From: Candidatus Bathyarchaeota archaeon
GTDB taxonomy: Archaea; Thermoproteota; Bathyarchaeia; TCS64
Assembly: GCA_963769425.1 (NCBI GenBank)
Contig: CAVYLP010000003.1
Coordinates: forward strand, 1-64,000
Reading direction: 5' to 3'
DNA: 64,000 nt
Shown here: positions 15,334-62,783 of the stretch, piece by piece
How positions within the stretch are numbered: position 1 is the first letter of the stretch
Layout of the letters: every line of letters starts with the position of its first letter
Position numbers and translations under genes: made by a program
The notes under the pieces: model-generated
The model's input: only the letters and a program-made list of their open reading frames with translations
Databases searched by the model: none
What the model was told of the DNA's origin: nothing

Positions 15334-15412
15334 GCTCTTTAAAAAAAGACATCTCAATGATTTAAACAGAAAGATACTCGCTCAGATTCGATCGGATCCG
15401 CGCGCTTTACAT

Positions 15413-17191
15413 TTAATTGATGGAGTTGCTGGATCCATTGTTTACTATGTTTGCTTTGAGACTGCCAGTGAAGGTATTGCCCGACCCGGAGCAACTATTG
15501 GTGCCACTTGAAATTAGCAAACCATAGATCCCGCTATTTGTTACTGAATTTCCATAGAGCTTTGCCCCTGAAGCATTATAAGCTGTCCAACCAAGGACGA
15601 TACCATCACCCCTTACATTCGAAATAGTGTTTCCGTGGACGGACCCATCTTGAGAAATACCTATTCTGATACCCCCAGTAGACCGCGCAAGGATTCCATA
15701 GTATGTAGCTTTAATTTGATTATTGATAATCACCTGTCCGGAGCTCGATGTTGAGCTGCCAGAGATATCGGGATCAACTTCTATGCCACAGGTTTTGTAG
15801 TTTTGCTTAGAATCGTAGATGATGTTGTCTTTTACTACATTGTTTACAACAGGACCATCAGCTTCGTAGAAGCTAATACCCACGCAGCCTGAGATTGGAG
15901 AGTTTGTACTTATCGAAGTTCCAAATAACCCATTATTGGCGCTTGAAGTTCCCCAGGTTAGATATGCAGTGTCTATATCGTTTCCCACGACGGTAACATC
16001 TTTGGACCATCTTAGTTTGACACAAACGTCACGACAATCTTTGATTGTATTATATGCAATCAACCCGGAGCCGGACCAGGAACTTGAAGAACCGCCTGTT
16101 GCGATGCCATATTGCGCTTTAATTATCGTATTGTGTAGGAATTGGAAATTCTGCGCACCATAAGCTAACAAGCCGTATTGAATGACATTTTTAATTGTGC
16201 AATATTGAACTGTGGTATAGCTACCACACACTATAATTGCAGGTGATATATTCGAATTATAGTTTGCATCGAAGATCAGTTTTTGGATCGTGACGCCATT
16301 TGTGATTGTATTTACTTTAAATAAATACCCGGTTAAGGAGTTGGATGCCTGTATTATTGTATTGTCTTCACCCGTTAACGTTACACCACTAACTGTTAAG
16401 TTGGGTGTCGTGTAAGCGATGTAAACACCATTCTGGAACAGAACAACATCTGAAGATCTAATAATGCTGTTCAATGAATTTATGAGGGCGCCAAAATCCG
16501 ACTGTTTTGAAACAATTGTGTTTTGAGAGACAGATTTTACATAATATGTTGAACCGGATACATACACTATGTAGTCTGCTGATCCGGCGGTCATTGATTG
16601 AATTTGAGTAAATGTTGCCGTTACCACTTTATTATTATTCATAGTAAGAGTCAACGGGTTTTGAGTGCTTGAAACCGCACCACTCCAATTATTAAAACTC
16701 CAGCCGGCGAGAGGAGTTGCCGATATCTGGACTTGATCGTTCATCGAATACGTGGACTTGTTGGGTGAGACCAAAATTGATCCCTGGCCGATAGTTATTA
16801 AGTTAAGTGTAAATTGTTGGGGTTGTGTACTTGTGAAGACCGCAATTAGAGTGAACACGGCGCCGCCCCAATTCGAAACGAAGGGGAGGGGATTTCGAGT
16901 CACTATTTGTGAGCCTTGATAAATCCAGTGATCAAAGATCCAACCAGTATTCGCTGTGGCAGTAAGTGTAATCGTCTGTCCTACCGAATAGCTGTGGGTT
17001 CCCGAATTTGGACTCGTTGTTCCTCCGCCTTGCGACGAGATCACAATGGAATAGGAACTAGATGCCGCAGCGAATGGTGAAAAACCCCCAATTTGAGTGA
17101 ATAATGTTCCGGTTACTATCAAAAGGAACAAACAAATTGATACTCCGGATCTACTCGTTCTTTTAATAGGGTGTTTTAAGATTTTGGTCAA
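15413..17191 (-). CDS. Surface protein: TM/signal, 2 InlB-B-like repeats and a right-handed beta-helix
   Basis: TLTATANTGWIFDHW and GWSFNNWSG repeats; Asn/Ile-rich beta-helix rungs. Confidence 0.8.
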   Translation of the reverse strand: MTKILKHPIKRTSRSGVSICLFLLIVTGTLFTQIGGFSPFAAASSSYSIVISSQGGGTTSPNSGTHSYSVGQTITLTATANTGWIFDHWIYQGSQIVTRNPLPFVSNWGGAVFTLIAVFTSTQPQQFTLNLITIGQGSILVSPNKSTYSMNDQVQISATPLAGWSFNNWSGAVSSTQNPLTLTMNNNKVVTATFTQIQSMTAGSADYIVYVSGSTYYVKSVSQNTIVSKQSDFGALINSLNSIIRSSDVVLFQNGVYIAYTTPNLTVSGVTLTGEDNTIIQASNSLTGYLFKVNTITNGVTIQKLIFDANYNSNISPAIIVCGSYTTVQYCTIKNVIQYGLLAYGAQNFQFLHNTIIKAQYGIATGGSSSSWSGSGLIAYNTIKDCRDVCVKLRWSKDVTVVGNDIDTAYLTWGTSSANNGLFGTSISTNSPISGCVGISFYEADGPVVNNVVKDNIIYDSKQNYKTCGIEVDPDISGSSTSSSGQVIINNQIKATYYGILARSTGGIRIGISQDGSVHGNTISNVRGDGIVLGWTAYNASGAKLYGNSVTNSGIYGLLISSGTNSCSGSGNTFTGSLKANIVNNGSSNSIN

Positions 17192-17347
17192 GTTACGCTT
17201 ATGTTGGTGATTGATTTAAAAACAATTCTGAGTTGTTTATATTAAAATCGAACAATTTCGAGATGCCTTGTGTATCGTACCGTTTAAAATATTAGGAAAC
17301 TGACACTGATTAATAGATATCTTTAGAATAAGAAAGGGTTTAGAAAA

Positions 17348-18217
17348 ATGGTTACGGTTTCAGTATTAATTACAATTTATAATGCTAAAAATGAGTTAAA
17401 AAAATGTTTAGACTCATTAGTAAATCAATCATTTTCTGACTTTGAAATAATTGTTGTCGAAGATCCTCCATTTGATGGTTCTAAACAAATAATCGATGAA
17501 TACGGCGATAATAGAATAAGTTACATTGGTAATACGAAGAGATTGGGGTTAAGTCAGAGTAGAAACGTTGCTATTGAAAATGCTCGGGGGAGATATCTAT
17601 TTTTTACAGATTCGGATTGCGTTGTTTCCTCAAAATGGATTGAATCAGGCGTTCAAACATTTCAAAATATTTCATGCGTCGGCGTAGAGGGGCGAACATT
17701 CTACGTTTCTGAAAACTACCAACCAACTTTTTCGGACAGAATAATTTCAAATTTGGACGGTGGAAACTATAATACCTGCAATATGGCTTATTCGAAAAAT
17801 ATCATTGATTATGTACATGGATTCGACTCCCGCTTTTCTTACCACGAAGATAGGGACATCGCATTCCGAATCTTAAAACAAGGTAACATTATATTCAATT
17901 CAGACATGATAGTATATCATTCTAAAAGCAAATGGAAGGCTTTTAAATTTATCAAGTTTGGTAATATTATTAAGAACAGAGTTCTGCTATTTAAAAAATT
18001 CAATGATACATATGGTATTTATCATAGGATAGTCTTTCCTAAGGATTTAGCGATTATTTTATTCCCTCCATTTTTAATTGGTCTATATTTAAATCATAAA
18101 AATAAATTTGTTAATCGCGAAGATTGGATTTTACTGCCATTAACCTATTTGCAATTGTGGGATGAACGATTAAATTTATGGCTTATGTGTATAAAGGAAA
18201 AGGTATTTTTAATATAA
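17348..18217 (+). CDS. Glycosyltransferase family 2
   Basis: VSVLITIYN..CLDSLVNQ..EIIVVED; FTDSDC (DxD); EDRDI. Confidence 0.9.
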   Translation: MVTVSVLITIYNAKNELKKCLDSLVNQSFSDFEIIVVEDPPFDGSKQIIDEYGDNRISYIGNTKRLGLSQSRNVAIENARGRYLFFTDSDCVVSSKWIESGVQTFQNISCVGVEGRTFYVSENYQPTFSDRIISNLDGGNYNTCNMAYSKNIIDYVHGFDSRFSYHEDRDIAFRILKQGNIIFNSDMIVYHSKSKWKAFKFIKFGNIIKNRVLLFKKFNDTYGIYHRIVFPKDLAIILFPPFLIGLYLNHKNKFVNREDWILLPLTYLQLWDERLNLWLMCIKEKVFLI

Positions 18218-18247
18218 TTCGATCATACAAATAAGAAAATATTTTTA

Positions 18248-19978: not shown

Positions 19979-20219
19979 TAACGTATACCAACCTGAACGT
20001 ACTCTTATTATTCAGTTAGTACTTTCAGATAAGTATTTTCGTTTCATTGATTTTAGTAAGTTTATTGAGATTCATAGATATATTCATAAAACAATATTCT
20101 TTGTTTTGCATCAATAGTTAGGTTGATTTATCTAAAATTAATAGAATATTGAATTAATTATATTTTCGATTTATTTATAATTTGTATAGCGTGCGCATCA
20201 AAATACGTCGATAAATCAT

Positions 20220-21756
20220 TCAGTTTCTCGTTAATCTTTTGATGATTGCTAGTAATGGATCTCCGACTTTACCAATAGGGCCTAATTCCTTAAGAATGGT
20301 GTCAAGTTGAGCGAGATCCTTTGTTTTCAGTGCTCCGATTAGAGGTAGACCTAATATGTAGATTAGAAAGTAGGCTGCCCCTCCCAATACGAGAGTCTCC
20401 CATGCTTGTAGACTGAGATAATTTATCAGTAGATAAGTTGGAATCAAAGCTATCAAACCTACCAAATAGATTCCTCAAAGTTGAGTTCAAGTCCACATTC
20501 AAATTCAAGTTTTTCTTTGCCCATATTGTTTGGTAGAGCCATCCTGCCCTAGGAGATATCAACATTGTAACAAGGATCCCTATCATTCCAAAGGTGGGAC
20601 CTAAAACAATCACTAATGTGGCACCAATTATAAACGAGCATAAATCAGAGCGGAACATCACCTTTGATTCGCCGATTCCGAAAATTAGGTTATTTAGGGA
20701 TATGCCGCCTAAACCCTCCCAGACGTAAGTTAGTATAAAAAGGCTGAGATACTGGGCGACAAATGGGTATTCTGCGCCATATAATATATTTGATAGTGAG
20801 GATGAAAGAACGATTAGAACTAGAACCACCGGTAACGTTAACATGGTCGTATACTTCACTGCAATCTGGTAGACGCTTTTTAGTTGCTGATCATCCTTCT
20901 TGAATTTGCTAAACAATGGGAAGAGTGTTGTAGCTAAGGGCATGGTTATAAACGAAACTAAGACTGCGAAATTTGTGGCAGCGCCATAGTTACCTATTAA
21001 ATCGGTCGCTACGTAAATGACCATAATACTATTATATATTTGCCCAAGCACAGCTCCTAGAAAAGCCCCCATGAATACCGGTAACCCATAGTTTAGCAAC
21101 TCTTTAAGTGTGGTAAAACTCAAACCTATTCCGTTGCCTTCGAACTTTATGATAATAAAGATCAGAAAAACACCAAGTAAACCAACAACAAGTTGAGATA
21201 CCGTATTTGCTAATACTGCGCCGAAAGCCCCCATACCGATTAATAGAAAACCCACAGTAAAGACCGTTCGAGTAACAGACCAAATGATTTGAGATAAACT
21301 TCTAAATCCCATAAGCTCGTAGCCCACGAGAATAACTTGGATTGTTGATAGAAGCCCCCCACCACCTAAAACTGATAAAGCTGCTGCCTGAACAAGAGGT
21401 GTCATATCAGGCCTCTTGAGGAAGCCGGAAGCTATCGGTCCAGCAAATGCGTACATGGCCCCACTAAGCAAAATGCTGGTGGCAACGCTGAAGACTAGAC
21501 CAGTAATTACAACTGACTTGAGTTTGTTTAGCTGTCCTTCATGTCGATAGAGCGCACTGAATCTAACTAGCGCAGTATTCATACCAAGATCTTGGAAAAG
21601 TAAAGCAATTGAGACTGGCAATAATGCGATAGTATATTGCCCATATTCGGTTGGACCTAAAATTCTAGCCATCCAAATAATAGTTAGGGTTGAAATTATT
21701 GCTGTAATGATTTGACCTATTAGTAGCATCATGCTATTTCTAGCCGAGCTACGCAA
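20220..21756 (-). CDS. Oligosaccharide flippase (Wzx/MOP family); frameshift at ~20470
   Basis: ARILGPTEYGQY, DLGMNTALVRF and IGNYGAA; about 14 TM segments. Confidence 0.9.
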
Positions 21757-26750: not shown

Positions 26751-27036
26751 CTTGGAAAAAGTAACTATAATAGTAATTAAAAGGAAAATGGAATTATAAA
26801 ACTGTCACATGATATGAATTAAATTATATCTATTTTCAGGTATATTTTAATGAAAAACAGATAATACGTATCATATGTACATAATATCAAATAAATTAAT
26901 AATGATGTTATGTATTTCTAATATATTGAGATTAATACAGAGACGTTAAAAAAGTGACTAATTTGACTTTATAAAATATTAATACGAGTGTTATTTCATC
27001 TTATGCACGCGCGAACGTAAGCAACATGAACCAGGA

Positions 27037-35146: not shown

Positions 35147-35149
35147 AAG

Positions 35150-38183: not shown

Positions 38184-38423
38184 ACTACCACATATATATC
38201 AGCGTCGCGCGCATAATAATCTAACTACTTCCTGATTAATAAATAATATACAGTATAACTTAGTTTTAAACGGTGTATAAAAAGAATTCAGCTCATATAA
38301 TAGTGGTACGAGCTAATTTTCAACTTGTCCAAGAATCGGAGAGGGTGATTCAGTGAGCATCAGCAAAACCTTCTTTACTTCGGTTCGGATGAGTATACAT
38401 AGTAGTTGAGTTCTTGAGTTAGA

Positions 38424-39513: not shown

Positions 39514-39823
39514 GTAGTTCGATTGGGTAGAAACCTATATAAAAAAATAAGTATGTTTGTACGCTCTATCGTAGCGTTCGAGAATATCCTATACTTGGCA
39601 GTGATGTCATTTACGACCGAAAACAAAGCCCTTTTAACGAGGTGGTTGGTTTAGAAATAAAGTTCAAGTAATTAGAGGTAAGATAAAGTGCATGTCGGGG
39701 ACTATAAGGCGTGCACACATCACCCTAAAGAGCATCCATTTCATCTGACTGGAGACTCGGACAAACGATAAATATACAATTACAAAAAAGTATTGTCCCT
39801 GACGAGCACTTAGGAGGGAATAT

Positions 39824-40881: not shown

Positions 40882-41204
40882 AAACCGGTATATATTTAAT
40901 ATTCATTGTTCAAAGAATCGTGTGTATGGAACGATATACATATTTTAGTACTAGACAAGTTCCTTAACTGAATGCTACGTGCGCAAGAGAGGATATTTCA
41001 AAACGATTAGGCTAAAAGTATGTTGTAGGGAATGGGTTTTTTAGTATCGGATTCCGTCCCCTCCAGGGTTTACGAATCTGGCTCTTAAAATACTTCTTAA
41101 ATTTAAACATTATAGATCTAGATGATCATGTATAATTACATATATAAAGGGAAGCGAATCATTAGTAAAAAACAATATAACTTCCCAACATATTAAACAT
41201 CATA

Positions 41205-42293: not shown

Positions 42294-42713
42294 CCACTGA
42301 CGTACAAAGCCAACCACATCAATCTTTCAATGGAATTTGACTTTCACTAAATCGGGGTATAAAATGTGACTCGTGAGAGTCGCCGGCAGTATGAAAGGGA
42401 ATCTGGCTTGTTCAGATAAACTGCATGACAATGATCTCTTTACCGCAAGATTTTTTTGTCAACATTATGGATAACGGTTTGAGAAGTGCTCACCAAACAC
42501 CTCTGATACCCTTAGCCAAGTAATGCGCGTTCTACTGTCCAGTTAAACTAACCGGAAAATAATACTTCGACAAATCGGTTAAATAGTTATGTGAATACTC
42601 ATGGCTGCTCAAGTAAACCATGCTAAATTGGTTTCAAAAGTTAAAAAAAAAGCGTAAATTCCCCTGTTAATGACTTGTTAAACACTATAAATATTTCAAT
42701 GCCTAATGAACTA

Positions 42714-43538: not shown

Positions 43539-43843
43539 TTTAATATGCTATTATGAGTAAATCTTCTATCTGATCGATGGATTATCATCGCACGCATATC
43601 AGTTCCGTTACAGAATATCCTTGACTTATTAATATCGTCTCCGATATTCTAGTTCTAATCTATCGTTAGGTAGTAAATTAAAATAATCTTAATAATTATT
43701 AGGTGCAGAATAAAAAACTATTAGACCCTGATAAAAGTGTTACAATCTTTGTCAAGTTAAATAAAGCATTGAATAAAACCAGTCGAAATAGAACAGCGCG
43801 CATTAAAGATAAGACGTATTGACCATATTGCCCATTTTACTAT

Positions 43844-45061: not shown

Positions 45062-45304
45062 TTAGCTGACTATACCGAGAACCTTAATTAAAGCAAAATA
45101 GCTAAGTGTCATAAGAAAGGCTACCCCAACTAAATCTACGTCTCGTCTCTTTTGTCTGAAAATTAGAGTTGTTCCAAAATAACAAATACTCAGAATTGTG
45201 AGATAGATGTCCAAAGTAATCTTTGGGATTAGGAATTGTGCAGTTAAGAGTGATACAAAGAAAACGATACTGAGTGTTGAAATATAGAGTTTTTGTTTAT
45301 TCAT
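45062..45304 (-). CDS. Small 3-TM membrane protein
   Basis: Hydrophobic 80-aa ORF directly downstream of, and co-oriented with, 45316. Confidence 0.65.
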   Translation of the reverse strand: MNKQKLYISTLSIVFFVSLLTAQFLIPKITLDIYLTILSICYFGTTLIFRQKRRDVDLVGVAFLMTLSYFALIKVLGIVS

Positions 45305-45315
45305 CTTTTATCACC

Positions 45316-46591
45316 CTAAATATCGCCGTAATTATTTTTCCAGTTGTATTCTCTTCCTTTAGAATAATTGGGGCGTGGTAGATTATTTGCGAGTACGCTA
45401 CCAACTATGCTTGTTTGGAGTGTTCCTAGGACGGCTATGTAGCGTGGAAAGTCGAAGTTGAGCGTGCTTACTTTCATTTGAATGAGGACGTCTTCACCCT
45501 GTTTGATCTCCTTAACCGACTGGATAAGGCCTAAACCCTCTACGAGAGTGTTTCTGAGTGCTTCCTCAATTGAAACATCATTATTTAGTGATTCGATTAA
45601 ATCGCCACCAATCGGCATACGGATCATTAGCCCTAGCTTCCTATCGATATCTATAACGAGCCTCGGTGGGGCATCTACCAGTTTTTTAAATAGATTAAAA
45701 TCAGTAGGCTCTCCGAGAGGTATATATGCATACGTTCTTCCCTCCTTACTAGGGAGATAGATCGCCTTCTCTTTAGCTTCGAATTGCTCGAGAATGGCTT
45801 CCACATTATATAATGACTCTTTTAACATCGCGAGCAGATTTTTATGGGGTGTGGGATCGTTTGGGAGCAGCATAGTGGTGGCGCCTAAAACGAATATGGC
45901 GATCCCTATCGCTGTAAAGAGACTGCTGTTGAATCTGAAAAATGCAATCACTGACAGCCCGGCACCGATGGATGTGAGGATGAACCCAAGAAGGATGTAG
46001 GGGGAGATCTTAATCTTTCGCGTTGCCTTCACCTTGGATGGGCTCGTTTTCGATTCATTACGGTACCAAACGCGTACACCCCAGATTAGTAATACAAATA
46101 CGCCCAAGGATGCGAGAAAAAGTGATACTCCTCTAGCGTTTATGTCTCGTAAAAAGTAGGAGAAGGGATGAGAAAAATCAGCTGAGACAACCCCATACCA
46201 GAGATACTTCGTTGCATTACTAAACGAATTATCAAAGTTGAGTCTATAGTATCCATTTTCGTTGGCTGTCCACGTTACTTGTTCAGGGTTGATGATTCTC
46301 TTTTCGACTATAGACGTATTCGAGGGACTCTTTATGCTGAAATCGAGGTTGTTATTTCCGCCAGATATGTGGATCTCGACAGACTACTTTTGTTCCTTGG
46401 GGAAGCCAAGTCAAGAGATAATTCTGGGAGGAGGGATTAATAGTCGAATTTGCTTCCGTTGGATAAATGTGGTAAGATTCTGATACTATTAACGGTCCTA
46501 CTATCATCAGACCAATACCTAGTAGTATCAGAAAAAAACCTGGAACTAAAAAAATCGTGTTGTTTCCCTTTAAAAAAGAACTCATGTCCAC
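45316..46591 (-). CDS. Membrane protein with an emp24/GOLD-like domain; frameshift at ~46380
   Basis: The joined frames give ISGGNNNLDFSIKSP..WTANENGYYRLNFDNSFS, then TM helices and ORF 45316-46107. Confidence 0.6.
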
Positions 46592-46884
46592 TAGTTACTT
46601 CGACCAGTTTAATAATAGTTTATGCCTTCTTGTTTCTGTTTGTTTTTTATGTAGAAAAGGTAGTGAAGAGGAAAGTAACAATGAGAACGAAAGTGCTATT
46701 GGGTTTCGGCGCACGCAATTCATAAATGGCTCAAATTAATTGGAAATTCATAACAGTTTCTACAATCATTATCACTTATTAAAAAGAGTGTTTCGGGAAT
46801 AAATTCTTATAAATGAGGATGAAAATCGCACCCTTTTCAAGGATGTATATTAATAGCTAAAAAAATAACTTTTATTGTTACAAA

Positions 46885-47162
46885 ATGGCATTCGATCCAC
46901 TTGAATTGGTTATTATCGTCGTAGCAGTTGCACTTCTTTTCTAGGGCCCAAGCAGATCCCCGAACTAGCGAGAGCACTCGGAAGAGCAAGAGGTGAGTAC
47001 AGTAAAGCCAGCAAGGAAATAGATAACGAGGAGAAGCCTAAATCACGAAAGGAGACCCCCGAAGACCCGTTAACAACTGTGGCCCTAAGCCTAGGAATAA
47101 GCGTGGAAGGAAAGTCAAAGGACCAGATTGCTAAGGAGATAATTGATAAAAAATCTTTCTAA
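46885..47162 (+). CDS. tatA: TatA/E paralog; frameshift at ~46940; absent from the ORF track
   Basis: MAFDPLELVIIVVAV..GPKQIPELARALGRARGEYSKA..LGISVEGKSKDQIA, paralogous to 48186-48482. Confidence 0.85.
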
Positions 47163-47230
47163 GAAAAGATGAGTTTTAGGATTCCTCGTCTAAGCGGACT
47201 CATTAGTCATGATATTTCACATAGTCAAGA

Positions 47231-48139
47231 CTATATTCTTGACTTCCCGCACTTCCGGCAGAATGCCTCATTCCCCTTAAACTTAGTCCCACAATAATTG
47301 CACTTGGATTCGACTGCTTTAGGGAATTCAATGAGGTTTGGAGTCACCCTGTTCTTCTCATACCTCTTAGCAACTATAATCGCGCCCTCGATCATTATAA
47401 TCACTGGTATGAATAGAGCAAGATCCGCGAGCGGGCCTCCATCTGGACTTATCAGCGCTGTGATGGCGTAGATTATAATGTAGAAGATCTTCCTGTTCTG
47501 TGTGATGATGGAGGTACCAACTACGCCAAATTTTACCAGAAGCACAAAAAAGACCGGAAATGTAAATCCAAATCCAGTGAATAGTACCGTAGTGAAGATC
47601 ATCGAGTAGAAATCAAGAGCCGTGATGATTGGCTGCGCGCCCACGAACTGTGCGAAAATAATCACCGTCAACGACATAAATGGAGCTAAAAATAGGTAAC
47701 CGAAGGCTGCCCCGGCTGCGAAGAAGAGTGTAAATCCTAACACAAAGGGGTAAACTGCCTTCCTTTCGTTCTCTAGCAGGGCTGGATTAATGAATTGAAA
47801 TATCTCGTATCCAATGATCGGGGAACTGACAACAAACCCGAGTAGGATAGAGGCGAAGACATAAACCTCGAGAGGATCACCAATCTGCAGACTGATAATC
47901 TGTAGCTCAGTTGGAGCAACATAGTTCTTGACGACCTCCAGCATGACCGAGATCATTGGTCTGTAAAATCCTGTAAGAAAACTTGAAGGATTAATTAAAT
48001 CAAGGGGATTCGCGGGGAAAAGCATGAAAAAGATAGTGCTTACGAGAAGTGCAATAATAATAACCTTAGATCTGTCGGCCAACTCCTGAACATGCTCAAG
48101 AAAATTAGCCACTATACCAGGTTCTTCAGTCGCCGCCAC
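47231..48139 (-). CDS. tatC: Twin-arginine translocase TatC with a C-terminal zinc ribbon
   Basis: FLEHVQEL, YEIFQFINPALLENE and ISPDG; tail CNYCG..FCRKCG. Confidence 0.92.
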   Translation of the reverse strand: MAATEEPGIVANFLEHVQELADRSKVIIIALLVSTIFFMLFPANPLDLINPSSFLTGFYRPMISVMLEVVKNYVAPTELQIISLQIGDPLEVYVFASILLGFVVSSPIIGYEIFQFINPALLENERKAVYPFVLGFTLFFAAGAAFGYLFLAPFMSLTVIIFAQFVGAQPIITALDFYSMIFTTVLFTGFGFTFPVFFVLLVKFGVVGTSIITQNRKIFYIIIYAITALISPDGGPLADLALFIPVIIMIEGAIIVAKRYEKNRVTPNLIEFPKAVESKCNYCGTKFKGNEAFCRKCGKSRI

Positions 48140-48185
48140 ATAGCATCCCTACAGGACTGGTGAGTAATTAAAAAAAGGAAAGACC

Positions 48186-48482
48186 TTAGAGGTTGGTCTT
48201 CTTCGCAACAATCGCGTCGGCGATCTCATCCCGCGTCTTCCCGACTGTTTCGATGCCGAGTTGCTGCGCCACCTCAATGATTTTATCGGGTGCCGGAGCA
48301 CTCTTAGGAGCCTCCTTCATGGCCTCCTGCGTGAAGACCTCTACCTCACTCGCGGCCTTAGAATATTCATTCTTCGCGCGTCCGAGCGCCCTGGCTAATT
48401 CAGGGATCTTGTTAGGTCCCCAGATCAGGAATATCATGATGGCTCCGACAATTACAACCAGTTCAAGTGGATCTAACGCCAT
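48186..48482 (-). CDS. tatA: Twin-arginine translocase TatA/E
   Basis: ELVVIV..IWGPNKIPELARALGRAKNEY. Confidence 0.92.
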   Translation of the reverse strand: MALDPLELVVIVGAIMIFLIWGPNKIPELARALGRAKNEYSKAASEVEVFTQEAMKEAPKSAPAPDKIIEVAQQLGIETVGKTRDEIADAIVAKKTNL

Positions 48483-48527
48483 TTTCCATCGATTCAGCGA
48501 AGGGAAGCTTTCTTAATATACCTAATC

Positions 48528-48559
48528 GATTAGCTATTTTTAATTTAAAATAGCTAATC
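48528..48559. promoter_or_regulatory. Perfect 13-bp inverted repeat with a 6-bp spacer upstream of tatA
   Basis: GATTAGCTATTTT-TAATTT-AAAATAGCTAATC. Confidence 0.6.
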
Positions 48560-48643
48560 AATTCATCAAGATACAGTTTTTCATCTTATCTATTTATAAA
48601 AAAAAATTCTAATGGAGAAACCACTGCTCGACAGCGAGGCGGG

Positions 48644-48673
48644 TGGTGTAGGAATGGAAATTGAACCAATTGT
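48644..48673 (-). repeat. Degenerate copy of the tRNA-Met 3' end (att-like)
   Basis: TGGTGTA-GGAATGGAAATTGAACCAATTGT vs TGGTGCCGGGAATGGGAATTGAACCCATGGT (50022-50052): 25/31 identical by manual alignment. Confidence 0.7.
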
Positions 48674-48768
48674 AATAGCCATATAACGGCTGTCCTTTTC
48701 ACACATCTCTATTCGACTAATTAACTGATGCCCCCAAAACCTCGCATGCAGTTGAGAGCACGCACATA

Positions 48769-49799
48769 TTGGTTAGAAAATACGTAACTCCTATAATGGT
48801 AAAAATCACATCTGTGTCTGATAACACATTGGAAAAAGTAGGCGAACCTTCATTAAAGCAATACTTGAACCAAATCATTGACTACGTAAAGACAAAAGAA
48901 CAACCCAACAAACAAATTACCTCAAATAAACTCGTAGAAACACTCTTCGACACACTACTCTCACACGACTTCTGCTACCTAACGAGAACCCAAGTCGTAC
49001 CCTACACATCGCAGATAATCGACGCATTCCAATCCGCAACACAGAAAAACAAACCACTACCCATGTACCTTGACCTCGGGCCCGGATACCACGCAGCCCT
49101 TGAAAAAAGCGACCCAAGACGCCTCTCCTTCGAGGTAGACCTAGGAGAACTCCTAGTTCTATATCAGATGAGAAAATTCATCAATAGAGTAAATAAAATC
49201 TATCCACCCGGGGCTGAGTTCAACATTATAATTGACAACGTGTGCGCTGTCTACGTAAACGACATCAACACTAAGGAAACGGAGCACTACTGCAGCCGAT
49301 TCAGGGAACTAATAAGAGAGATGAATATGGAGGACCATGTAAAACTCCTCGTCGAATCGGAGCACTTCAACGTATCAGACTATGATGTTAAACCAATCCC
49401 CGAAGATGAAATAAAATCCTACGAACTCACAAAAGATGAACATGAAAACGTCGAACGATTCATTGGGCGCGCCTGCTCCAAAGAAGAGGCAATTAGGAGA
49501 ATACTAACATACAAACAGATAGGAGACAGAACAGATGAGTTATTCTACAGCTTTTTCCAACACGGAGTACACATGACACAGAGAGCCTCAAAGCACAACG
49601 ATAAGCTTCAGACCATTCCCAGGAGGCGACTCTAGGATACAGAGCCGGAAAAGTCGTCCTCGGCATCAACAACAGAAACAAAGTGTATCCCTTCCTGTTA
49701 ACCAGCACCAACTACGAAAAATTCGTATATGAGAGCTTCACCTTCCCGGAGATTCAACCGAAGGCAATTCGAGAAATAACGTTCGCTCACCCATCATAA
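48769..49799 (+). CDS. Hypothetical protein with partial resemblance to the Dit1/PvcA (isonitrile synthase) fold; frameshifted near 49590 and 49645
   Basis: DLGELLVL..INRVNKIYPPGAEFNIIIDN..ETEHYCSRFRELI; shifted frames give FRPFPGGDSRIQ and ..FAHPS*. Confidence 0.55.
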
Positions 49800-50021
49800 A
49801 TATCCAATTAACAAGCGTTCAATCCTACTAAAGGATCGAAGGTCAGCCAAACGTAATTAATTCAATGGATTAGGCTTCATTCCAGCATTTCGAAAACAGG
49901 AACTAGCCGTCAAAGCAACCATAAAAACATCATACCTGCCACCTTGACGCTGCTAAAAAAGTCCAGACCCTCATGATTCACACCAATAATGAAGATTTCA
50001 GTTAATTATTAAAAATATAAT

Positions 50022-50131
50022 TGGTGCCGGGAATGGGAATTGAACCCATGGTCTCTATCCGGCTAAGGCACTGGTGCCTATAACCTCTGGATCATGAGTC
50101 CAGCGCATTAGCCAAGCTATGCTACCCCGGC
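50022..50131 (-). tRNA. tRNA-Met(CAT), elongator type, encoded CCA, 32-nt intron at position 43/44 (50055-50086)
   Basis: Acceptor stem GCCGGGG/TCCCGGC-A-CCA; anticodon arm CTGGA-CTCATGA-TCCAG; T arm ATGGG-TTCAATT-CCCAT; splice motif ATCC/GGAT helix with two AGA bulges; TTTAAA about 30 nt upstream. Confidence 0.92.
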
Positions 50132-50170
50132 CCTTCTGACCCATACACACTGCACAAATTTAAATCCTGA

Positions 50171-51367
50171 TCATCGCTCAACGAGCCTAGGTTCACTAAG
50201 GGCGATAGGTCTTCCCTTCTCAAAATACACCCTTGGTAACAGTGGATGCAACCCAACCATGAGGGAATACGTCATAATTCCGGCTAGTTCAGCCACGTTA
50301 TGCGCGTTATTCACACCACCACGCCCTATGGCTTCTACTACCCCACCCACGTCGACGTCTGTCCCATCAAGATCGACTAGGAAGTGATTGACAGATACCG
50401 TCCCTAGTACATGTTTGATCCTCCCATCCACCATGACTAGGCCTTTCTTCGTCAAGCCCCTCGGGTAGCCGTCGGAGTACCCGATATGAACTGTCCCCAC
50501 CTTCATCCTCTTAGAAGCCGTGAATCTCCTAGAATAGGTGAGGGACTCTCCAGACTCAACCCACTTGACCTGTTCGACTCGAGCTTTGAGGGAAATTGCC
50601 AACTTTAGGTCCAAACCGCTCTCCCGATCCTCAGGGTCGGGATAGAACCCGTAGAGCATTAAGCCCGGCCGAACAGCGTCCAAAAACGTGAAGGGTCTGT
50701 GGAAGACCGCGTTTCCACTTGCCATGCTGCGGACCCCATACCTAATCCCCAATCGATCCAACTCTGCGCTGACATCCTTCATTCTATCAACCTGAATCCG
50801 ATCAAGTTCCGCATCCTCCGACATGGTCGAGAAAATACCGGTTATCTCAAGGTGCGTAAGAGACGAAATATACTGAACGAGATCAACGGCTTCGCTCCAC
50901 CTTACACCAACTCTACCGAGTCCTGTGTCGATCTTAACCCGAGTCTCAGCCTTCTTCCCGACTTTTTGGGCTGCGGATTCTAGTCTCTCCGCCGTTTTCT
51001 TCTGGTAAATCGTCTGCGTGATTTCTTTTGTGACAACCAATTCATAATGCTCATCTGAGAAGAGGGGATCCATGCTGATCACACCACAATCAAGGTGAGA
51101 GTCCCTGATCTGCTCGGCCTCCCAAAGCTTTGCTACGAGGTACTGCTTGATGCCCATCCTCATCATATGCGCAACTACTGGTACCAACCCATGGCCGTAG
51201 GCATTCGTTTTAACACAGGGGATCACTTCGACTTGGACCTTTTTCTTAACTTCTTCAAGGTTGTATGTGATAGCGTCGAGGTCGATCTCGAGCCAAGAGG
51301 GAAAGCCCTGGATACGTTTCTCTATCTCTTCAGAGGAAAGCTGCCTAGCGAAATAGGCTTCAGCCAA
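50171..51367 (-). CDS. alr: Alanine racemase family (fold-III PLP) enzyme
   Basis: VKTNAYGHG, KIDTGLGRVG, VRPGLMLYG, LTYS and GYSDGYPR. Confidence 0.85.
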   Translation of the reverse strand: MAEAYFARQLSSEEIEKRIQGFPSWLEIDLDAITYNLEEVKKKVQVEVIPCVKTNAYGHGLVPVVAHMMRMGIKQYLVAKLWEAEQIRDSHLDCGVISMDPLFSDEHYELVVTKEITQTIYQKKTAERLESAAQKVGKKAETRVKIDTGLGRVGVRWSEAVDLVQYISSLTHLEITGIFSTMSEDAELDRIQVDRMKDVSAELDRLGIRYGVRSMASGNAVFHRPFTFLDAVRPGLMLYGFYPDPEDRESGLDLKLAISLKARVEQVKWVESGESLTYSRRFTASKRMKVGTVHIGYSDGYPRGLTKKGLVMVDGRIKHVLGTVSVNHFLVDLDGTDVDVGGVVEAIGRGGVNNAHNVAELAGIMTYSLMVGLHPLLPRVYFEKGRPIALSEPRLVER

Positions 51368-51676
51368 GTGACATCGACGGATTAACTGGCTCTAATCCTA
51401 TTAAATAGGTTTGGCGAATTAACACAATTTACCCAGAAAAGCCATGACAACATGGACTTGCAAATCCCTGACCAGAACCAAACACTCACTATGACCTTCA
51501 CAACGCTAGGGGGCTATCACTTATTGTAGCGTTCACACAAGGCCCTTGTAGATAGGATATAAGGGTCATGGCAAGGCGTAGAAATAAGCTAGAATTGACT
51601 TAGATTTAAGAAATTTCTCCTAACTATAAATACGATTCTTCCTTTTATAAAAACGGAGAACCGTGAGGTAGTAAAA

Positions 51677-52075
51677 ATGTCCGCTCCGATCCCTCCGTCA
51701 GCTATAGACTGGGGTAAGGTCTTCGAGATATTTCTCGTACTTGGAGCGATCGCCTTGACGGTGGTCATGGGATCAATGCTCTACATGCTTGTAAAATACA
51801 GATTTAGGGGAGGGGAGTGGACAGAGAGACCGATTGACCCATCTCACGAAAACACTACCCGTTGGAGGGAAGCGATAATCTTCGCCTCAATATCATTCCT
51901 TGTACTCTTTGGATTAGCCATAGTCTCATACAGGGCAGTAGTATACATCCAGAATCCGCCGATCGCCACTAATTCCTACGAGATAAAGGTCACGGCGTTT
52001 CAATGGGACTTCAGGTTTACCTATCCTAACGGATACTCAACGGTTGGGGTATGCAATGTCCCAGCTAATGCGCGC
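51677..52075 (+). pseudogene. coxB: Cytochrome c oxidase subunit II, N-terminal part, truncated by the IS
   Basis: Two TM helices, then IKVTAFQWDFRFTYPNG..VPAN. The CuA-binding half is absent after the IS. Confidence 0.8.
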
Positions 52076-53337
52076 TGCCTTGTCCCGAAATTAACGGCCA
52101 AACACCAATCCCTCGAGCAAGGAGACATAAAATCAACTCACAAAAACCACTAAGCCACATCAACCCCTCCGAAGCCCACAAAACACCCACAACAGACTAC
52201 ACCCCCAGAACCCCAAACCCACTACCCACTAGCCACCCCCACCAGAAACCCCTCAGACGAGACCCTCACACGTTGAAGAACGTAGGCGAAACAGCCTTCT
52301 CAGGCCGACCCAGACACTCAGCCGCCTCACGAACCAGCACGACACAGAGCAGGCTCAGCAACGCATACACCGAAACGCATCCCAGCCTCCTCACATTGTT
52401 CACGGTCAAACCGTACTGGGTCTTCAGCCAGCTGAACACCGACTCCACCAGCGGACGCTTATGGTACTCGGCCACGAGCCCAGGTGGACCGTGAGTCCTG
52501 AACCTACGATCAACCCTCAGAATCCCCTCACCTCTCTGGTTAGCAGTATACGGAATCACCGAATCAGAGACGAGACCCCTCACCGCCGAGCTACTGTACT
52601 GGCTGTCCGCCACCAGGCTCCTCACCAACCCGCCGGCCCTAACCAGCACCGCCCTGGCCTTCTCAACCAAGCCTGGAGCGTGCTTCTTCTCGTTGTCGTT
52701 AGCGGGAGCCAGCAGAGTGGCTAAGGGAAGCATCGTTTTGTGGTCCACCGCGACGTGGAGTTTGTAGCCGAGGTCGTAGCCCCTGCCGTTCCTGCCCACT
52801 AGGGCGTCTGGGTCAGAGTACGCGACCCTGCTGTTATCCGGGTGCCTGATGCTCCGTGCCTTGATGAAGCTCGCATCCAGGAGCACATCGACCTCAGGGG
52901 CTCTGAATCTGAGGAGTTTGACCACCTTCTCCTCGAGGATGAGCTGGAGGACGTCGGATCCGACCCGCTTCGTGAATCTGCTGATGACGGATCTGGGGTA
53001 GCCTCTCTGTTTCCCGTATATGAGGCAGAGCCGTCTGAGTCGCCGGTCGACGTCGAGGATCCGGGTGAGCTCGCGGAGGCTTCGGATGCCTTTCAGCCTC
53101 ATTATGAGGAGGGCTCTTAGGATTCCGAGTGGGTTTCTGGGTGGTCTGCCGGCTCCGGTTGTGTGGTAGCAGCCGATGAGTTGTTTTTGGGCAATGCTTA
53201 AGTCGACGTTTCTGAAGAGTGTTTCAAGGGTCTCGTGTTCGTCCTGTCCTAACGGACTCGACCTCCTCTGGTTCCCGCCATGGGTGACGAGACCCTAACT
53301 TTCAAGATAAACTTGTCTCGAATTTAGGGACAAGGCA
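52076..53337 (-). mobile_element. IS element (DUF772 + DDE_Tnp_1; IS5/IS1182-like) with 17-bp TIRs, flanked by GCGCGC on both sides
   Basis: Left end TGCCTTGTCCCGAAATT (52076-52092); right end AATTTAGGGACAAGGCA (53321-53337); GCGCGC at 52070-52075 and 53338-53343. Confidence 0.9.
52266..53252 (-). CDS. DDE transposase
   Basis: The frame is open upstream of 53102 (GAGRPPRNPLGILRALLIMRLKG); LDAS, GYKLH, ADSQY and YHKRPLVESVFSWLK. The start is uncertain. Confidence 0.9.
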   Translation of the reverse strand, partial: LGQDEHETLETLFRNVDLSIAQKQLIGCYHTTGAGRPPRNPLGILRALLIMRLKGIRSLRELTRILDVDRRLRRLCLIYGKQRGYPRSVISRFTKRVGSDVLQLILEEKVVKLLRFRAPEVDVLLDASFIKARSIRHPDNSRVAYSDPDALVGRNGRGYDLGYKLHVAVDHKTMLPLATLLAPANDNEKKHAPGLVEKARAVLVRAGGLVRSLVADSQYSSSAVRGLVSDSVIPYTANQRGEGILRVDRRFRTHGPPGLVAEYHKRPLVESVFSWLKTQYGLTVNNVRRLGCVSVYALLSLLCVVLVREAAECLGRPEKAVSPTFFNV

Positions 53338-53532
53338 GCGCGCGATAAGACTATGGCCCCAAACCCAAATTAGATCTTGATTTCTGCTAGATTTTTATTC
53401 TTTGAAAGAAAAAACTAAATATTTCTTAAAGTATGTGAAAGATGTGTATAGATATGCGCGCGCAGTTAAATTTAATATTTATAAACTCTGGTGCAAAATC
53501 GATCTATTGCACCAATAAGTGGCGAAAAATAA

Positions 53533-53783
53533 ATGACGAAAGAGACGTTCGAAATAGGTGAGACCGAAAAACACCTTATAATAGTTGACGCGAGCATATT
53601 TTGGAAACATATAACCATCGAAATAGATGGGAAAACAATGGTTAATGAGTACAGTTATTCACCGATGCCGAAGAAATTCCAGTTCGACGTGGGAACTTCC
53701 GAAAAGCATCAGTGGAAATCAGCGCCGGGGGCTTCTCACCCATCAAAGTCGTTGTAGATGGCAAAGAGGCTCAAAAAACCTGA
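53533..53783 (+). CDS. Small beta-rich hypothetical protein; frameshift at ~53712
   Basis: Internal repeat FEIGETEKH / FDVGTSEKH; continues EISAGGFSPIKVVVDGKEAQKT*; TTTATAAA and a GGTGCAA..TTGCACC dyad upstream. Confidence 0.6.
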
Positions 53784-53848
53784 ACATGCACCGCAGTAAT
53801 TCGTTAGACATGATCAACATAGAAAGCTAGCGAGAAAACTCGGAAATC

Positions 53849-54524
53849 TTACTGGGCCCGCGTCTCCATAACAGGCGGGACGCGATACTCGCCGTTCAGG
53901 ATGGCCGGGCCGGGCTGGTAGACGCGCAGCCAGAGTATGAATTTGCCTGCAGGCGCGGGCAACCAGTTGGATTCATGGCCTGCCGGAGCGGCGTTCTGAA
54001 TATAAATGTCGACGGAGCCGTCGGCGTTTGGCACGAGTCCCGACCGGTCGCTCACGCTGTACCGGTTGATTGGATTCGGCACAAAGCGATTGTGGTCATC
54101 ACCCATAGTCAGCGACCAGAATGCATTGTTCGGCGGGAGTTGTCCTGCCGGGAAGTGCATGATGTAGTCGTGCTCTCCGGAGAGCGGATGACCCGCGCCA
54201 TCTGCGTCCGTCGTCCAGTACATCGCCTCCTCCGGTACGTTTACCGGGCCAGGAAATATCTGGGCGCATGCGGCTCTGAACAGAAAGCCGATTGCCAGGC
54301 TCGCCGCATCCGAAAATGGTGGTCCAGCCGTTGACCTTCGTGACATAGATCCTCGCAATAATCGGGAGCGTGACAAACGCCAGCCCGAAGCCGAGGAGGA
54401 TGCCTTGTATCACGTCATTACGCACAGTTCTTGAATTGGGATTTAAGATGAACGAATTGATGATGAAAAAGACGAATACCACGCCGATGAGTACCGTCAG
54501 AATAGCGTATGTTCTGCTGCTCAT
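53849..54524 (-). CDS. DUF1214 domain membrane-anchored protein; frameshifted
   Basis: EEAMY..LSGEHDY.MHFPAGQLPP..FWSLTM..DGSVDIYIQ..NWLPAP..LRVYQP. Confidence 0.85.
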
Positions 54525-55111
54525 ATTGATCCCTCCTGGTTTAGCGGTGTGAGCCGTATCTGCTTTGCAAGATGATGGGCGGTCGGCAGGTCGCTGTCGC
54601 TCTCCACGAGCACTCGGCCGATGACGAGCACCGAGTTGTTCGGCGAGGATATCTGTTTCATGCCGCTCGGCACCTGTCCTTTCCAGTTCGGCCCCGTGAT
54701 GAGGTAGTCGCCGGCTTCGGTTCCCGTGGTACGTTTGCCGACGTAGGCGAAAACTGTGTTGTTCGACGGGTCGGTGAACTGCACGCTGTAGTAGCGGCCG
54801 TTCATGTCCGGGACGTGCAGGACTTGCGGCCCTTTTCTGAGGTCAAGCCAGCCGACCGTAGAGCGTGTCGCGGTTCACGCCGTAGTCACCAGGTTTGAGG
54901 CCGAGGCGGGCGGGTGGAGGGGGTCTGCAAAGAGTGTTTGGGGCTCCGTATAGAGCGTATTGACCGGGATGGGGCCTTCGCCGAACCCTTTAACGAGGAT
55001 CGCTCTCTTGTACACGTACAGAATTATGCGTGGCCAATTGTAGATGAAAAGGAACCATGTCACGACCATGATCGAACCGAAAATTAATAGATCTTCGAGT
55101 TCCCACATCAT
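54521..55111 (-). CDS. DUF1254 domain protein; frameshifted
   Basis: NRDTLY..LDL..P.VLHVPDMNGRYYSVQFTD..YVGKRTTGTEAGDYLITGPNW. Confidence 0.85.
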
Positions 55112-55266
55112 GGATTCATCTTACATGATTGTTTATACAGTTTGCCATGATCTCATCTTTGATGAGGAGGTTGTATTGAAAAATGCCAACAAACTTTCAA
55201 CGAAAATTATTGCGCGGTTGTGGGTAAATGTTGGTTGTCTTTATGAGTAAAATCGCGTCTCGCGCA

Positions 55267-55600
55267 CGCCCCGCTACCATTAGCTAACCCCTCAATCTCA
55301 GAGAGAGTACTCAAAGCGTTACGGAGTATCAGGATCCTTAACAAGAACTCTCAGTTGACATATGCCAAGCATCTCAGAAGGCTGGCTAAAGGAGTAAACC
55401 TTGATTCTTCCGAGAGGTTTGCACTAATCTTTCATCTGAGCAAACATGGGCTAAGACCCGATGAAATCAGTAAGATAAAACTCAGTTTTTAATGGGGATA
55501 GAGGTGAGCTTTCGGTTAGAACATCAAAGCTTGGTCTTGAATGGACGCTGAGATTGAAAAGAGAATCTAGCGATTTATTTAGAGATCAACTTGCCTTGAT
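55267..55600 (+). pseudogene. Tyrosine integrase remnant whose frame opens through a tRNA-3'-end-like sequence
   Basis: APLPLANPSISERVLKALRS..TYAKHLRRLAKGVNLD..HGLRPDEISKIKL, then in a shifted frame RGELSVRTSKLG. It begins at CGCCCCGCTACCA. Confidence 0.7.
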
Positions 55601-57182: not shown

Positions 57183-57306
57183 GTTTATCGATGATAGAGC
57201 TACTGTGCGCCTACATAGTACCTATCATTGGCCGAGGAGATCGACAGTTGTGCATGGAGAGTTATGTAAGAAATGATGCGAGTGCGCAACTCATGTGACT
57301 AAAGAT

Positions 57307-59070: not shown

Positions 59071-59380
59071 ATGTGGAGATTCGTAGTCTGCGGATATTTC
59101 AGTTGCGCGCGAATGACTCTCTTATTTTTAATAAAAGTGTCAAGTCAGACTCGCAAGTGAAAACGTTAGTATGGGGCTTCCCCCCGCTACTTTTAATAAA
59201 TTTATGAATATTATCCAGTTCAACTACACATTCAGAACTCGAATATGCAGAAGAGGAGAAAAATCTCGCATCCTGTCGCGCACGCGTAAGGATTATGGGG
59301 TTGCGTATATTATGTGCTGGTCATCCTCGCACGCTTGCCGTCTCATACACTTTTTAAAATTCAATTCTCAATACAGAATC

Positions 59381-59695: not shown

Positions 59696-59702
59696 GCGAA
59701 CA

Positions 59703-60056: not shown

Positions 60057-60070
60057 GGGATAGATAAACG

Positions 60071-61668: not shown

Positions 61669-61782
61669 CCCCCTTACTGATCCCTTCATATGCCCGCGCA
61701 AGCTGATAATCACAGGGAAGCTAAAAGATTACGAGTACAACGAAACTAAACCTATATATAATTTTTAAACAAATAGCAATGT

Positions 61783-61980
61783 ATGGCCTTCAAACGAATT
61801 TATCAGGACATCCCGGGAGTCAGCTGTCCATTATGCGGCGCATCCGTATTGAAAGATGCTAGAAATACAAAAAAGATCACCTATTTCTGCAGTGGAAAAA
61901 CAACCCACGACCTAACAAATAACAAGACCATAAAGGCCTTTTTAATTGGAGAAGCCCTAACCCGACCTACAACACACTAG
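61783..61980 (+). CDS. Small zinc-binding protein
   Basis: CPLC..C....H; TATATATA about 30 nt upstream. Confidence 0.6.
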   Translation: MAFKRIYQDIPGVSCPLCGASVLKDARNTKKITYFCSGKTTHDLTNNKTIKAFLIGEALTRPTTH

Positions 61981-62349
61981 ACTACGCCTACGCACATAGA
62001 AGCTAAGATAAAATCATTATTTCAAGAACATTATAGACTACTTAAATGCTTATCTCATTTTTCGAACTTGCCTTTAGCTCAAAAAAACAATCAAACATAC
62101 CGCCAGAAAATTAACCCAAAAGAACAATTACAAAACAACCAAAACCCATCAAAAAAAAAACGACCATGACATAAAACACAAAAAAACCCTAAAAACACAT
62201 ACAAACACACTTTAACAACCACTTTTTAACAAAAACAAGTGAATTGTGATGAAAGAGATCTCTTTCCCCGCTACCACGTACTACCCCCTCAACGTTCGCG
62301 TGTATAATAAGATAAATAAGGGTTATTTGCATTCTTTTTTTGACCTTGT

Positions 62350-62466
62350 ATGCCATGTAAGTGCAAAGAGTGTGGCGAAGTTTTTCCGAGTGCCAAGCAG
62401 AGAGATGCTCATATAGCCAAAGCACACCCAGAGAAGAAGACGCCAACAACTGCCAAGTCTTCATAG
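62350..62466 (+). CDS. 38-aa C2H2 zinc-finger microprotein, below the ORF-track cutoff
   Basis: MPCKCKECGEVFPSAKQRDAHIAKAHPEKKTPTTAKSS*: C-x2-C-x3-F-x8-H-x4-H. Confidence 0.8.
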   Translation: MPCKCKECGEVFPSAKQRDAHIAKAHPEKKTPTTAKSS

Positions 62467-62783
62467 AGCGATGGGACCTATACCCTATTTCGCTCGCGCG
62501 TATCATACTCAGATTTTTTCAGATTTCTAAGCTTTGAGAGTTCAAACGACAGCCTTGTACTACCCCCGCAACTTTTCAATTAAACTAAATATTATTTGGT
62601 TTAAAATACTTTTTCGCAAACGATGAAGGGCTTATGGCAAGAAGACCATAATGCTCTCGTGATATTAATTGAAAAATTTATGTCGATTTAGAAATAAAAT
62701 AATTATTTATTTATATTGATGATATTTTTTGAATATCAAATCGAGCAGAATTTTTATATCTAAAATAAGAAGATGAATAATGT

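Follow-up and report, generated by a model that had tools for sequence, protein, structure and literature searches.

The first 64 kb of contig CAVYLP010000003.1 (C3) from a Candidatus Bathyarchaeota archaeon (assembly GCA_963769425.1) carries short tracts of alternating purine and pyrimidine rich in C and G, such as CGCGCGC and TGCGCGT, which stand in the spacers between genes and on both sides of an insertion sequence (IS). This stretch of 64,000 nucleotides is termed the window, and its genome (G000) is assembled to 2.55 Mb in six contigs of 52-57% GC. At 12-50 kb the window holds a low-GC island (25-48% GC) with surface-glycan genes recognized by Pfam (GT2 and GT4 glycosyltransferases, a DegT aminotransferase, a flippase-like gene and beta-helix/InlB-B-repeat surface proteins), along with FemAB/GNAT-like genes, a deacetylase and several split genes. 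The original prediction, made from the letters of the window, was that the tracts mark module boundaries as target sites or junction scars of a cassette-shuffling system, possibly driven by the IS family.

The tracts are counted here as the S6 family (14 alternating purine-pyrimidine hexamers with at least five G/C) and, more narrowly, as pure CG runs of at least three repeats. All 19 strings on which the original prediction was built lie exactly where it placed them, and each contains an S6 hexamer. The whole window has 101 S6 tracts; between 15399 and 62502, 18 are in spacers, four are in doubtful open reading frames (ORFs) with no Pfam match (46709, 59277, 62297 and 62495) and 23 are in ORFs, the ORF set (greedy calls, minimum length 70 aa) being deliberately generous. 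The original list overlooked two spacer tracts (55211 and 57205) and also omitted the IS flanks at 52069 and 53338. The 18 spacer tracts compare with 6.7 ± 2.4 (maximum 14) in 500 dinucleotide-preserving shuffles of each of 41 spacers (9463 bp), none of which reaches 18; the same shuffles give 0.83 pure runs (maximum 5) where seven are observed. Rfam and ARAGORN find no match at the tracts.

The finer arrangement read from the window holds in part. Tracts said to follow stop codons at a short distance do so 18-28 nt past 27037, 38183, 57307, 61668 and 62467, but there is no stop at 20220, where the nearest ORF end is 20302. The three genes set apart by tracts 38206, 39709, 40978 and 42524 are indeed paralogs (29-38% identity), with GNAT domains detected in one. 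The 27-38 kb block is free of S6 tracts between 27013 and 38206, as claimed; this absence is not significant, since the internal spacers of the block total just 0.84 kb or so, in which about 1.6 tracts are expected by a hand estimate. The IS is bordered by GCGCGC on both sides, with TGCGCGC at its left and GCGCGCG at its right (Table 1).

Table 1. Alternating tracts and associated features of the window (C6, another contig of G000)
Feature	Coordinates	Strand	Setting or structure
CGCGCGC	15399..15405		7 nt past stop of beta-helix surface-protein gene (15413-17191, -); 41 nt before next gene start
GCGTGCGC	20189..20196		105 nt past stop of flippase-like gene (20302-21756, -)
TGCACGCGCG	27004..27013		23 nt past stop of GT4 gene (27037-28236, -); left edge of 27-38 kb low-GC block
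CGCGCGCA	38206..38213		Convergent spacer, 22 nt past stop of deacetylase-like gene (37143-38183, +); right edge of block
GCGTGCAC	39709..39716		Divergent spacer between GNAT-family paralogs A (38424-39329, -) and B (40207-40881, +)
CGTGCGCA	40978..40985		Between paralog B and paralog C (41205-42293, +)
TGCGCGT	42524..42530		Convergent spacer past paralog C
CGCACGCA	43589..43596		50 nt upstream of GT2 gene start (43538, -)
GCGCGCA	43796..43802		41 nt past stop of split GFO/IDH/MocA gene
Segmental duplicate	45233..52075	+	Matches C6 1003708-1011217 (-); identity 87%, then 96%, then 99%
GCGCACGC	46709..46716		1.1-kb spacer 46108-47230, holding doubtful small ORFs only
GCACGCAC	48758..48765		Divergent spacer between TatA gene and PvcA/DIT1-like gene
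TGCGCGC	52069..52075		Left IS flank
IS	52076..53337	-	1262 bp; terminal inverted repeats starting TGCCTTGTCCC; DDE transposase 52266-53102 (-)
GCGCGCG	53338..53344		Right IS flank; first 4 bp equal last 4 bp of left flank (GCGC)
TGCGCGCGCA	53455..53464		Spacer 53345-53848
Two tracts	55211-55216, 55261-55269		Homology of DUF1254/DUF1214 unit to a relative's copy stops at 55260
Two tracts	57205-57210, 57282-57288		Between M28 peptidase stop (57307, -) and lyase start
TGCGCGCG	59104..59111		Divergent spacer between M28 peptidase gene and DsrC-like gene
CGCGCACGCG	59277..59286		Within long form of DsrC-like ORF, upstream of alternative start 59456
CGCGCA	61695..61700		26 nt past stop of ThiI/NFACT-R gene
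Zinc-finger unit	62297..62501	+	Tract 62297-62302, AT-rich box, gene 62351-62467, tract 62495-62501, then T6 run

Distribution of the tracts among genomes and gene neighborhoods

GCGCGC and CGCGCG are, in either order, the top two spacer hexamers of four Bathyarchaeia genomes from two genera, with an overall spacer excess of 3.4-13-fold over expectation. The relatives were sampled as G072 (633 kb, same genus as G000), G065 (229 kb, same genus, about 86% nucleotide identity to G000) and G011 (400 kb, another genus), and the ranking covers all 2080 strand-symmetric hexamer classes in G000, G072 and G011 and 228 GC-rich classes in G065. Under a first-order Markov expectation, the observed/expected ratios of G000 are 4.1 in spacers and 0.63 in genes for GCGCGC, 3.4 and 0.36 for CGCGCG, and 1.78 and 0.59 for S6 words at large, compared to 1.10 and 1.03 for non-alternating hexamers with at least five G/C. 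The corresponding spacer ratios for GCGCGC and CGCGCG are 9.2 and 8.2 in G072, 7.35 and 7.6 in G065, and 11.4 and 9.2 in G011. Both words are depleted in the genes of G000, G011 and G065 (0.36-0.69), and the G072 genes have ratios of 0.82 and 0.45. A stricter test, in which each G000 spacer is shuffled separately, returns 635 S6 tracts where 539 ± 18 are expected and 188 pure runs where 99 ± 9.5 are expected; the genes, by contrast, hold 520 S6 tracts versus 823 expected.

The 190 pure runs in G000 spacers are typically 6-10 bp and at most 12 bp in length. Perfect 8-mers are enriched 12-20-fold in G000 and 57-81-fold in G072 and G011. Enrichment is 3.6-11.5-fold in variants with the alternation intact and 1.4-2.6-fold in those that interrupt it; C-A/T-G substitutions are tolerated. 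The tracts extend across the lineage but not across the order, as samples from another genus of the same family (G027, 345 kb) and from another family (G002, 168 kb) contain one and no pure spacer run, respectively; nor are the tracts peculiar to the island or to the flanks of the IS. Alternating G-C runs are generally suppressed in prokaryotes according to the survey PMC4060949, and the 3.4-13-fold spacer excess is, on that account, the opposite of the norm. The portion of a tree-of-life Z-DNA preprint that could be consulted (10.64898/2025.12.30.697008) makes no mention of this lineage or of spacers, and a literature search with subscription journals outside its coverage turned up no description of such tracts. 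As an observation, the tracts are confirmed, and the pattern is stronger and wider than could be seen from the window.

The tracts are concentrated where gene order differs between species. Each spacer of 40 nt or more in a relative was classed as conserved when the best hits of its two flanking genes are neighbors in G000, and pure tracts were counted. In G072, tracts are present in 7/176 conserved spacers, 20/78 breakpoint spacers, and 24/79 and 37/133 spacers beside accessory genes (81/290 for all non-conserved spacers). This contrast is present in every spacer-length bin and has an odds ratio of 6.6 in a logistic model that includes spacer length, orientation and GC. It is likewise apparent in divergent pairs (1/47 conserved versus 23/93 non-conserved) and convergent pairs (0/10 versus 27/58), which cannot be co-transcribed; thus, operon structure does not explain it. 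Nor are the tracts merely imported with foreign DNA, since the breakpoint class of G072 is as rich as the accessory class. The same direction is seen in G011 (1/38 conserved; 9/81 breakpoint and 29/156 accessory, 38/237 together) and G065 (5/103 conserved; 3/14 breakpoint and 8/29 accessory, 11/43 together, p=0.0007). When G000 is judged against the G072 sample, S6 tracts are found in 25/169 conserved and 16/47 breakpoint spacers (p=0.0055). The proposed link to module boundaries is borne out at this level of gene neighborhood, but the first breakpoint test at nucleotide level, given below, is not significant.

The insertion sequence and sequence junctions

The IS is inserted in a CoxB-like reading frame (51677-52153, +). 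Its transposase has a DDE_Tnp_1 domain (PF01609, 62.8 bits, cut-off 23) and a DUF772-like N-terminus, and falls below all NCBIfam IS-family cut-offs (IS1182 is best, at 72.8 versus 270 bits; IS5 reaches 49.4 versus 140). The terminal inverted repeats and the short target duplication (4 bp) are those expected of an IS5-family element. G000 has 21 candidate ends with this inverted-repeat terminus, belonging to the IS and to 0.5-1.1-kb derivatives that have no transposase; an alternating GC-rich 4-mer stands immediately outside 17 of the 21, and is GCGC in 13 of those 17. One element (C6 355973-357093) bears GCAC on both sides; therefore, the 4 bp are a target duplication and not part of the element.

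The suggestion that the tracts are target sites of this IS family is supported. Ten distinct full-length copies with both ends paired are found in G000 (two copies) and seven relatives, and eight of these, from G000 and six relatives (65-86% protein identity), have GCGC on each side within longer tracts. A further copy at a contig edge has GCGC on its single readable flank, and the second G000 copy is missing the tract on one side. After the duplication is subtracted, the targets are still approximately 8-14 bp of alternation; thus, the tract preceded the element.

Whether the tracts depend on the IS is another matter: the IS lands in tracts, but tracts abound in samples with few or no IS copies. 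The 633-kb sample of G072 has a single credible element end, and the samples of G011 and G065 have none. By clade, IS hits are found in 11/17 genomes of g1, 4/5 of g3, 2/5 of g9, 0/4 of g11 and 0/6 of f2, with 0.43, 0.27, 0.54, 0.06 and 0.02 AT-flanked tracts per control palindrome, respectively (hand sums). These whole-genome counts of AT-flanked hexamers, made over 79 genomes, are confounded by coding sequence and provide only a rough clade index, and it is from this index that the spread within genera g9 and g12 is read. The G002 and G027 samples have neither tracts nor IS. This clade-level co-occurrence fits an element that needs its target. For the further claim that the IS family performs the shuffling, no supporting evidence was found. 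Element ends are far rarer than tracts, too rare to account for them. A left-flank search for an empty site of the G073 IS copy found none. Adjoining that copy is an 80-nt element (G073 L003 1180-1260) that is bounded by GC-rich alternating words, gives no tRNA by ARAGORN and has at least 11 other occurrences, spread over four genomes, at 74-98% identity.

The left flank of the IS ends a segmental duplicate, the identity of which stops exactly at the tract beside the IS (52069-52075). The copy on C6 has an uninterrupted 12-nt tract at this point and then unrelated sequence; thus, the sequences on either side of the IS are unrelated to each other, as recombination at the IS or the tract would leave them. 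The CoxB-like frame of the C6 copy continues past the tract. The two copies may have arisen by genuine duplication or may be variants of one locus from two strains, kept in a single assembly. Peat-metagenome contigs compared to 44-64 kb of the window are short pieces and provide no usable breakpoints besides one contig that loses its match at 52069. The frame at 51677-52153 encodes the N-terminal part of a protein resembling cytochrome oxidase subunit II (TIGR02866, 46.5 bits, below cut-off) and runs into the IS.

A tract made at a deletion joint is observed once. The HerA-NurA gene pair is intact in G000 (C6:873328-876230, locus L183), and its G065 counterpart (L115 9583-10142) is missing 1933 bp that span most of the HerA gene and the end of NurA. 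Between the truncated remnants lies a 7-nt CGCGCGC that comes from neither border; the tract was created at the joint. The claim that tracts are junction scars accordingly stands for one filler tract, but for one case only. In addition, a 1356-bp insertion in G065 opens with a 10-nt alternating tract (CGCGCGCGCA).

A small zinc-finger unit is bounded by tracts at the right end of the region. Its gene encodes a 38-aa C2H2-like protein (C-x2-C ... H-x4-H) and is conserved at 75-88% nucleotide identity at 10 loci in eight other genomes of the genus; a longer ORF on the opposite strand (62189-62506) is probably not a real gene. The unit has different surroundings in the other genomes, and its homology to 10 relatives begins at or just beside the left tract. 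An alternating GC tract lies 7-25 nt upstream of the AT-rich box in 10 of 11 orthologous copies, with drift in position and letters.

Several side observations concern the window at large. Tandem repeats at 4668-6013 (period 127-128 bp, 10.5 copies, 91-92% matches) lie within a 65% GC stretch, and most units carry GCGTGCGC and CGCGCGC one base apart; the period is no multiple of 3, and a coding model scores the first 12 kb of the window poorly. Split genes include DUF354 (two ORFs, 33019-34104), a GFO/IDH/MocA oxidoreductase (two ORFs, 43844-44787), an InlB-B-repeat surface protein (three ORFs, 24058-26750) and DUF1214/DUF1254 (three ORFs, 53849-55111). A 107-nt tRNA at 50025-50131 (-) is matched by Rfam (55.5 bits) and not by ARAGORN, and presumably bears an intron.

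Explanations for the tracts

The tracts are proposed to be hot spots and junction elements of genome flux, a reading given an even chance of being correct. The tracts are dispersed, fast-evolving alternating C-G runs that stand between the transcription units of one Bathyarchaeia lineage, and insertions, deletions and rearrangements would preferentially start or stop at them. As they are palindromic, identical everywhere and predicted to be Z-prone, the tracts offer the same 6-12 bp microhomology, in either orientation, in hundreds of spacers, and in this way would promote breakage or joining. The DDE IS and its short derivatives have specialized on the tracts, inserting in mid-tract with a 4-bp duplication (GCGC, once GCAC). 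A tract may be the target before an event or the scar after it; probably, both occur.

Several results weigh against this proposal. The ends of BLAST blocks fall within 10 nt of a tract in 2/46 cases in G000 (1.8 expected from random spacer positions) and 5/46 in G065 (2.6 expected, p=0.12). When the short allele of G000/G065 indels is locally aligned to both borders of the long allele, 18 of 21 indels are resolved, and a tract lies within 2 nt of the breakpoint in five of the 18, a count that was read by hand after the negative test and that is set against a chance expectation of about two by the author's own estimate. The other 13 have plain microhomology, unrelated filler or replacement sequence and no tract within 2 nt. 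In G000, pure tracts do not differ significantly between conserved (4/169) and breakpoint (3/47) spacers. The adjacency link is a correlation, and it may reflect removal of tracts from conserved spacers or tolerance of them in variable regions. The gene set of G000 is a rough set of the author's calls (2860 genes, 83.5% coding), and the relative samples of 229-633 kb are kin and, statistically, non-independent.

The best-surviving rival, itself rather unlikely, is that the tracts are boundary elements of transcription units, either supercoil sinks that act through a B-to-Z transition or sites for a chromatin or regulatory protein, with the link to flux being secondary. Conserved neighbors would be co-regulated and would need no boundary. 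In accord with this explanation, tracts in tandem spacers lean weakly to the stop side (mean relative position 0.44, p=0.018, n=138), those in divergent spacers lean toward the middle, and tracts are densest in convergent spacers (46 in 70 kb versus 48 in 138 kb of divergent spacer); the retention of a tract near the AT-rich box in the zinc-finger unit and the favoring of alternation-keeping variants also agree. However, the contrast between conserved and non-conserved neighbors persists in divergent and convergent pairs, which are never co-transcribed. Tract position has no peak relative to starts or stops and no set spacing to AT-rich boxes, and base composition around 319 spacer tracts of three genomes shows no trend between 2 and 40 nt on either side, whether gene-oriented or symmetrised, with no conserved base past the adjoining position and hence no flanking signal. 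The tracts are also poorly conserved, as 28% of S6 windows (only 18 windows) are identical in alignable G000/G065 spacers compared to 47% of other spacer hexamers, and two lineages of the same order manage without tracts.

The flat flanks bear on more specific signals. A BRE/TATA-linked promoter element, suggested by single cases that looked like a tract with a TATA box, is rejected from the pooled profile, since the flanking composition reveals neither such a link nor a T-run. An archaeal terminator or 3'-end signal, the alternative offered with the original prediction, is likewise rejected: there is no downstream T enrichment in gene orientation and no other conserved flank, the stop-side lean is weak at most, and tracts are also in divergent spacers. 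Restriction-modification avoidance and restriction-mediated integration are set aside as well, as cytosine-5 methylases are nearly absent; PF00145 is found in 0/18 genomes of the genus and 3/79 of the order, other methylase classes being outside the search.

A more far-reaching form of the hot-spot proposal, which is unlikely, is that the cell's own end-joining makes and re-uses the tracts, which would give a self-reinforcing system of cassette shuffling that generates its own junction sites. Repair would lay down alternating C-G filler because self-complementary CG ends anneal best, and each new tract would be favored by the next break, by microhomology joining and by the tract-seeking IS. 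End-joining genes such as Ku are rare in archaea. Ku is found in 15/18 genomes of the genus, including G000 (C6:595358-595840, 131 bits), in 13/32 of genus g12 and in the single genome of g5; it was not found in the other large genera searched. As a necessary partner of the tracts, Ku is rejected, being absent from 5/5 genomes of genus g3, including the tract-rich G011.

That the tracts are products of the IS and its short derivatives is improbable. The element would duplicate GCGC, its loss would leave GCGCGCGC, this would form a better target, and the tracts would grow by repetition of the cycle. The 4-bp duplication, mostly GCGC, the excess of runs that start with G and end with C over the opposite phase (140 versus 98) and the clade-level co-occurrence of IS and tracts, with G002 and G027 devoid of both, are consistent with such a cycle. 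The numbers, however, are not: the 21 candidate ends of G000 are set against 190 pure spacer tracts (635 S6), and the G072, G011 and G065 samples have one end or none despite a 7-11-fold tract excess. Moreover, 133/371 runs are of odd length and 98 are in the wrong phase, and the 8-14-bp targets indicate that the tract was there before the element.

A mutational by-product, in which self-complementary CG repeats expand by slippage and selection purges only genes and constrained spacers, has a similarly low probability. The fast turnover of the tracts, their variable length (6-12 bp), the lack of conserved context and the depletion in genes would all follow. Other dinucleotide repeats, however, are enriched at most 3.3-fold and are thus not comparable to the tracts, so general slippage is no explanation. 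Relatives of similar GC content also have no tracts, and the genes of G027 and G002 avoid the words more strongly (observed/expected 0-0.17); the suppression of alternating G-C runs in prokaryotes, as given in PMC4060949, is a further point against slippage.

Chance, or an artefact of base composition in which GC-rich patches stand out in AT-rich spacers, was tested and is almost certainly wrong: the motif family is loose and about half of the S6 tracts in the range of the original prediction are in ORFs and went unlisted there, but the shuffle tests, the 1.0-1.1-fold ratio of non-alternating hexamers with at least five G/C in the same spacers and the top two ranks in four genomes speak against it.

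Should the hot-spot proposal hold, a 6-12 bp alternating C-G mark would predict fluid genome sites in abundant uncultured archaea of sediment and peat and would provide a handle on the gain and loss of surface-glycan islands and other accessory modules. It would also constitute a natural example of short Z-prone palindromes at work in genome evolution, where surveys report avoidance, and of an IS that finds safe spacer sites through recognition of tracts. In metagenome-assembled genomes, tract-rich spacers would flag strain-variable junctions.

Comparison with known systems

The tracts resemble integron cassettes and their attC sites in that a short recombination-prone element bounds single-gene modules in a variable region, and the inserted module of G065 has a tract at one end. 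Unlike integrons, there is no integrase-linked array (no integrase is among the Pfam hits for 12-64 kb of the window), the genes are in both orientations, the elements are 6-12 bp rather than structured attC sites of 57-141 bp, and their distribution is genome-wide.

By the definition of the S6 family, the tracts are alternating runs rich in CG steps and are predicted to be Z-DNA-prone. They are of the same sequence class as the Z-DNA-forming repeats described as instability hot spots, although those repeats are long, whereas the tracts are short. The preprint 10.64898/2025.12.30.697008 cites Z-DNA formation as a cause of genomic instability in bacteria and of double-strand breaks in animals.

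The element that lands in the tracts is similar to the IS5 group in its DDE_Tnp_1 transposase with a DUF772-like N-terminus, its inverted repeats, its length of about 1.26 kb and its 4-bp palindromic target duplication. IS5 targets CTAG, a 4-bp palindrome. By contrast, the target here is GCGC inside a longer alternating tract, and the transposase is below every NCBIfam IS cut-off.

REP/BIME sequences are extragenic palindromes of enterobacteria that are targeted by the insertion sequences IS1397 and ISKpn1. Similarly, the tracts are GC-rich palindromes present in hundreds of spacers, spacer-confined and in many copies, 3'-biased, lineage-specific and a landing site for an IS. REP/BIME elements, however, are imperfect palindromes of about 35 bp that are conserved and hairpin-forming, whereas the tracts consist of 6-12 bp of pure alternation and lack both conserved flanks and a conserved hairpin palindrome of 20-40 bp. 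To our knowledge, a breakpoint link as strong as that of the tracts is no part of the REP picture.

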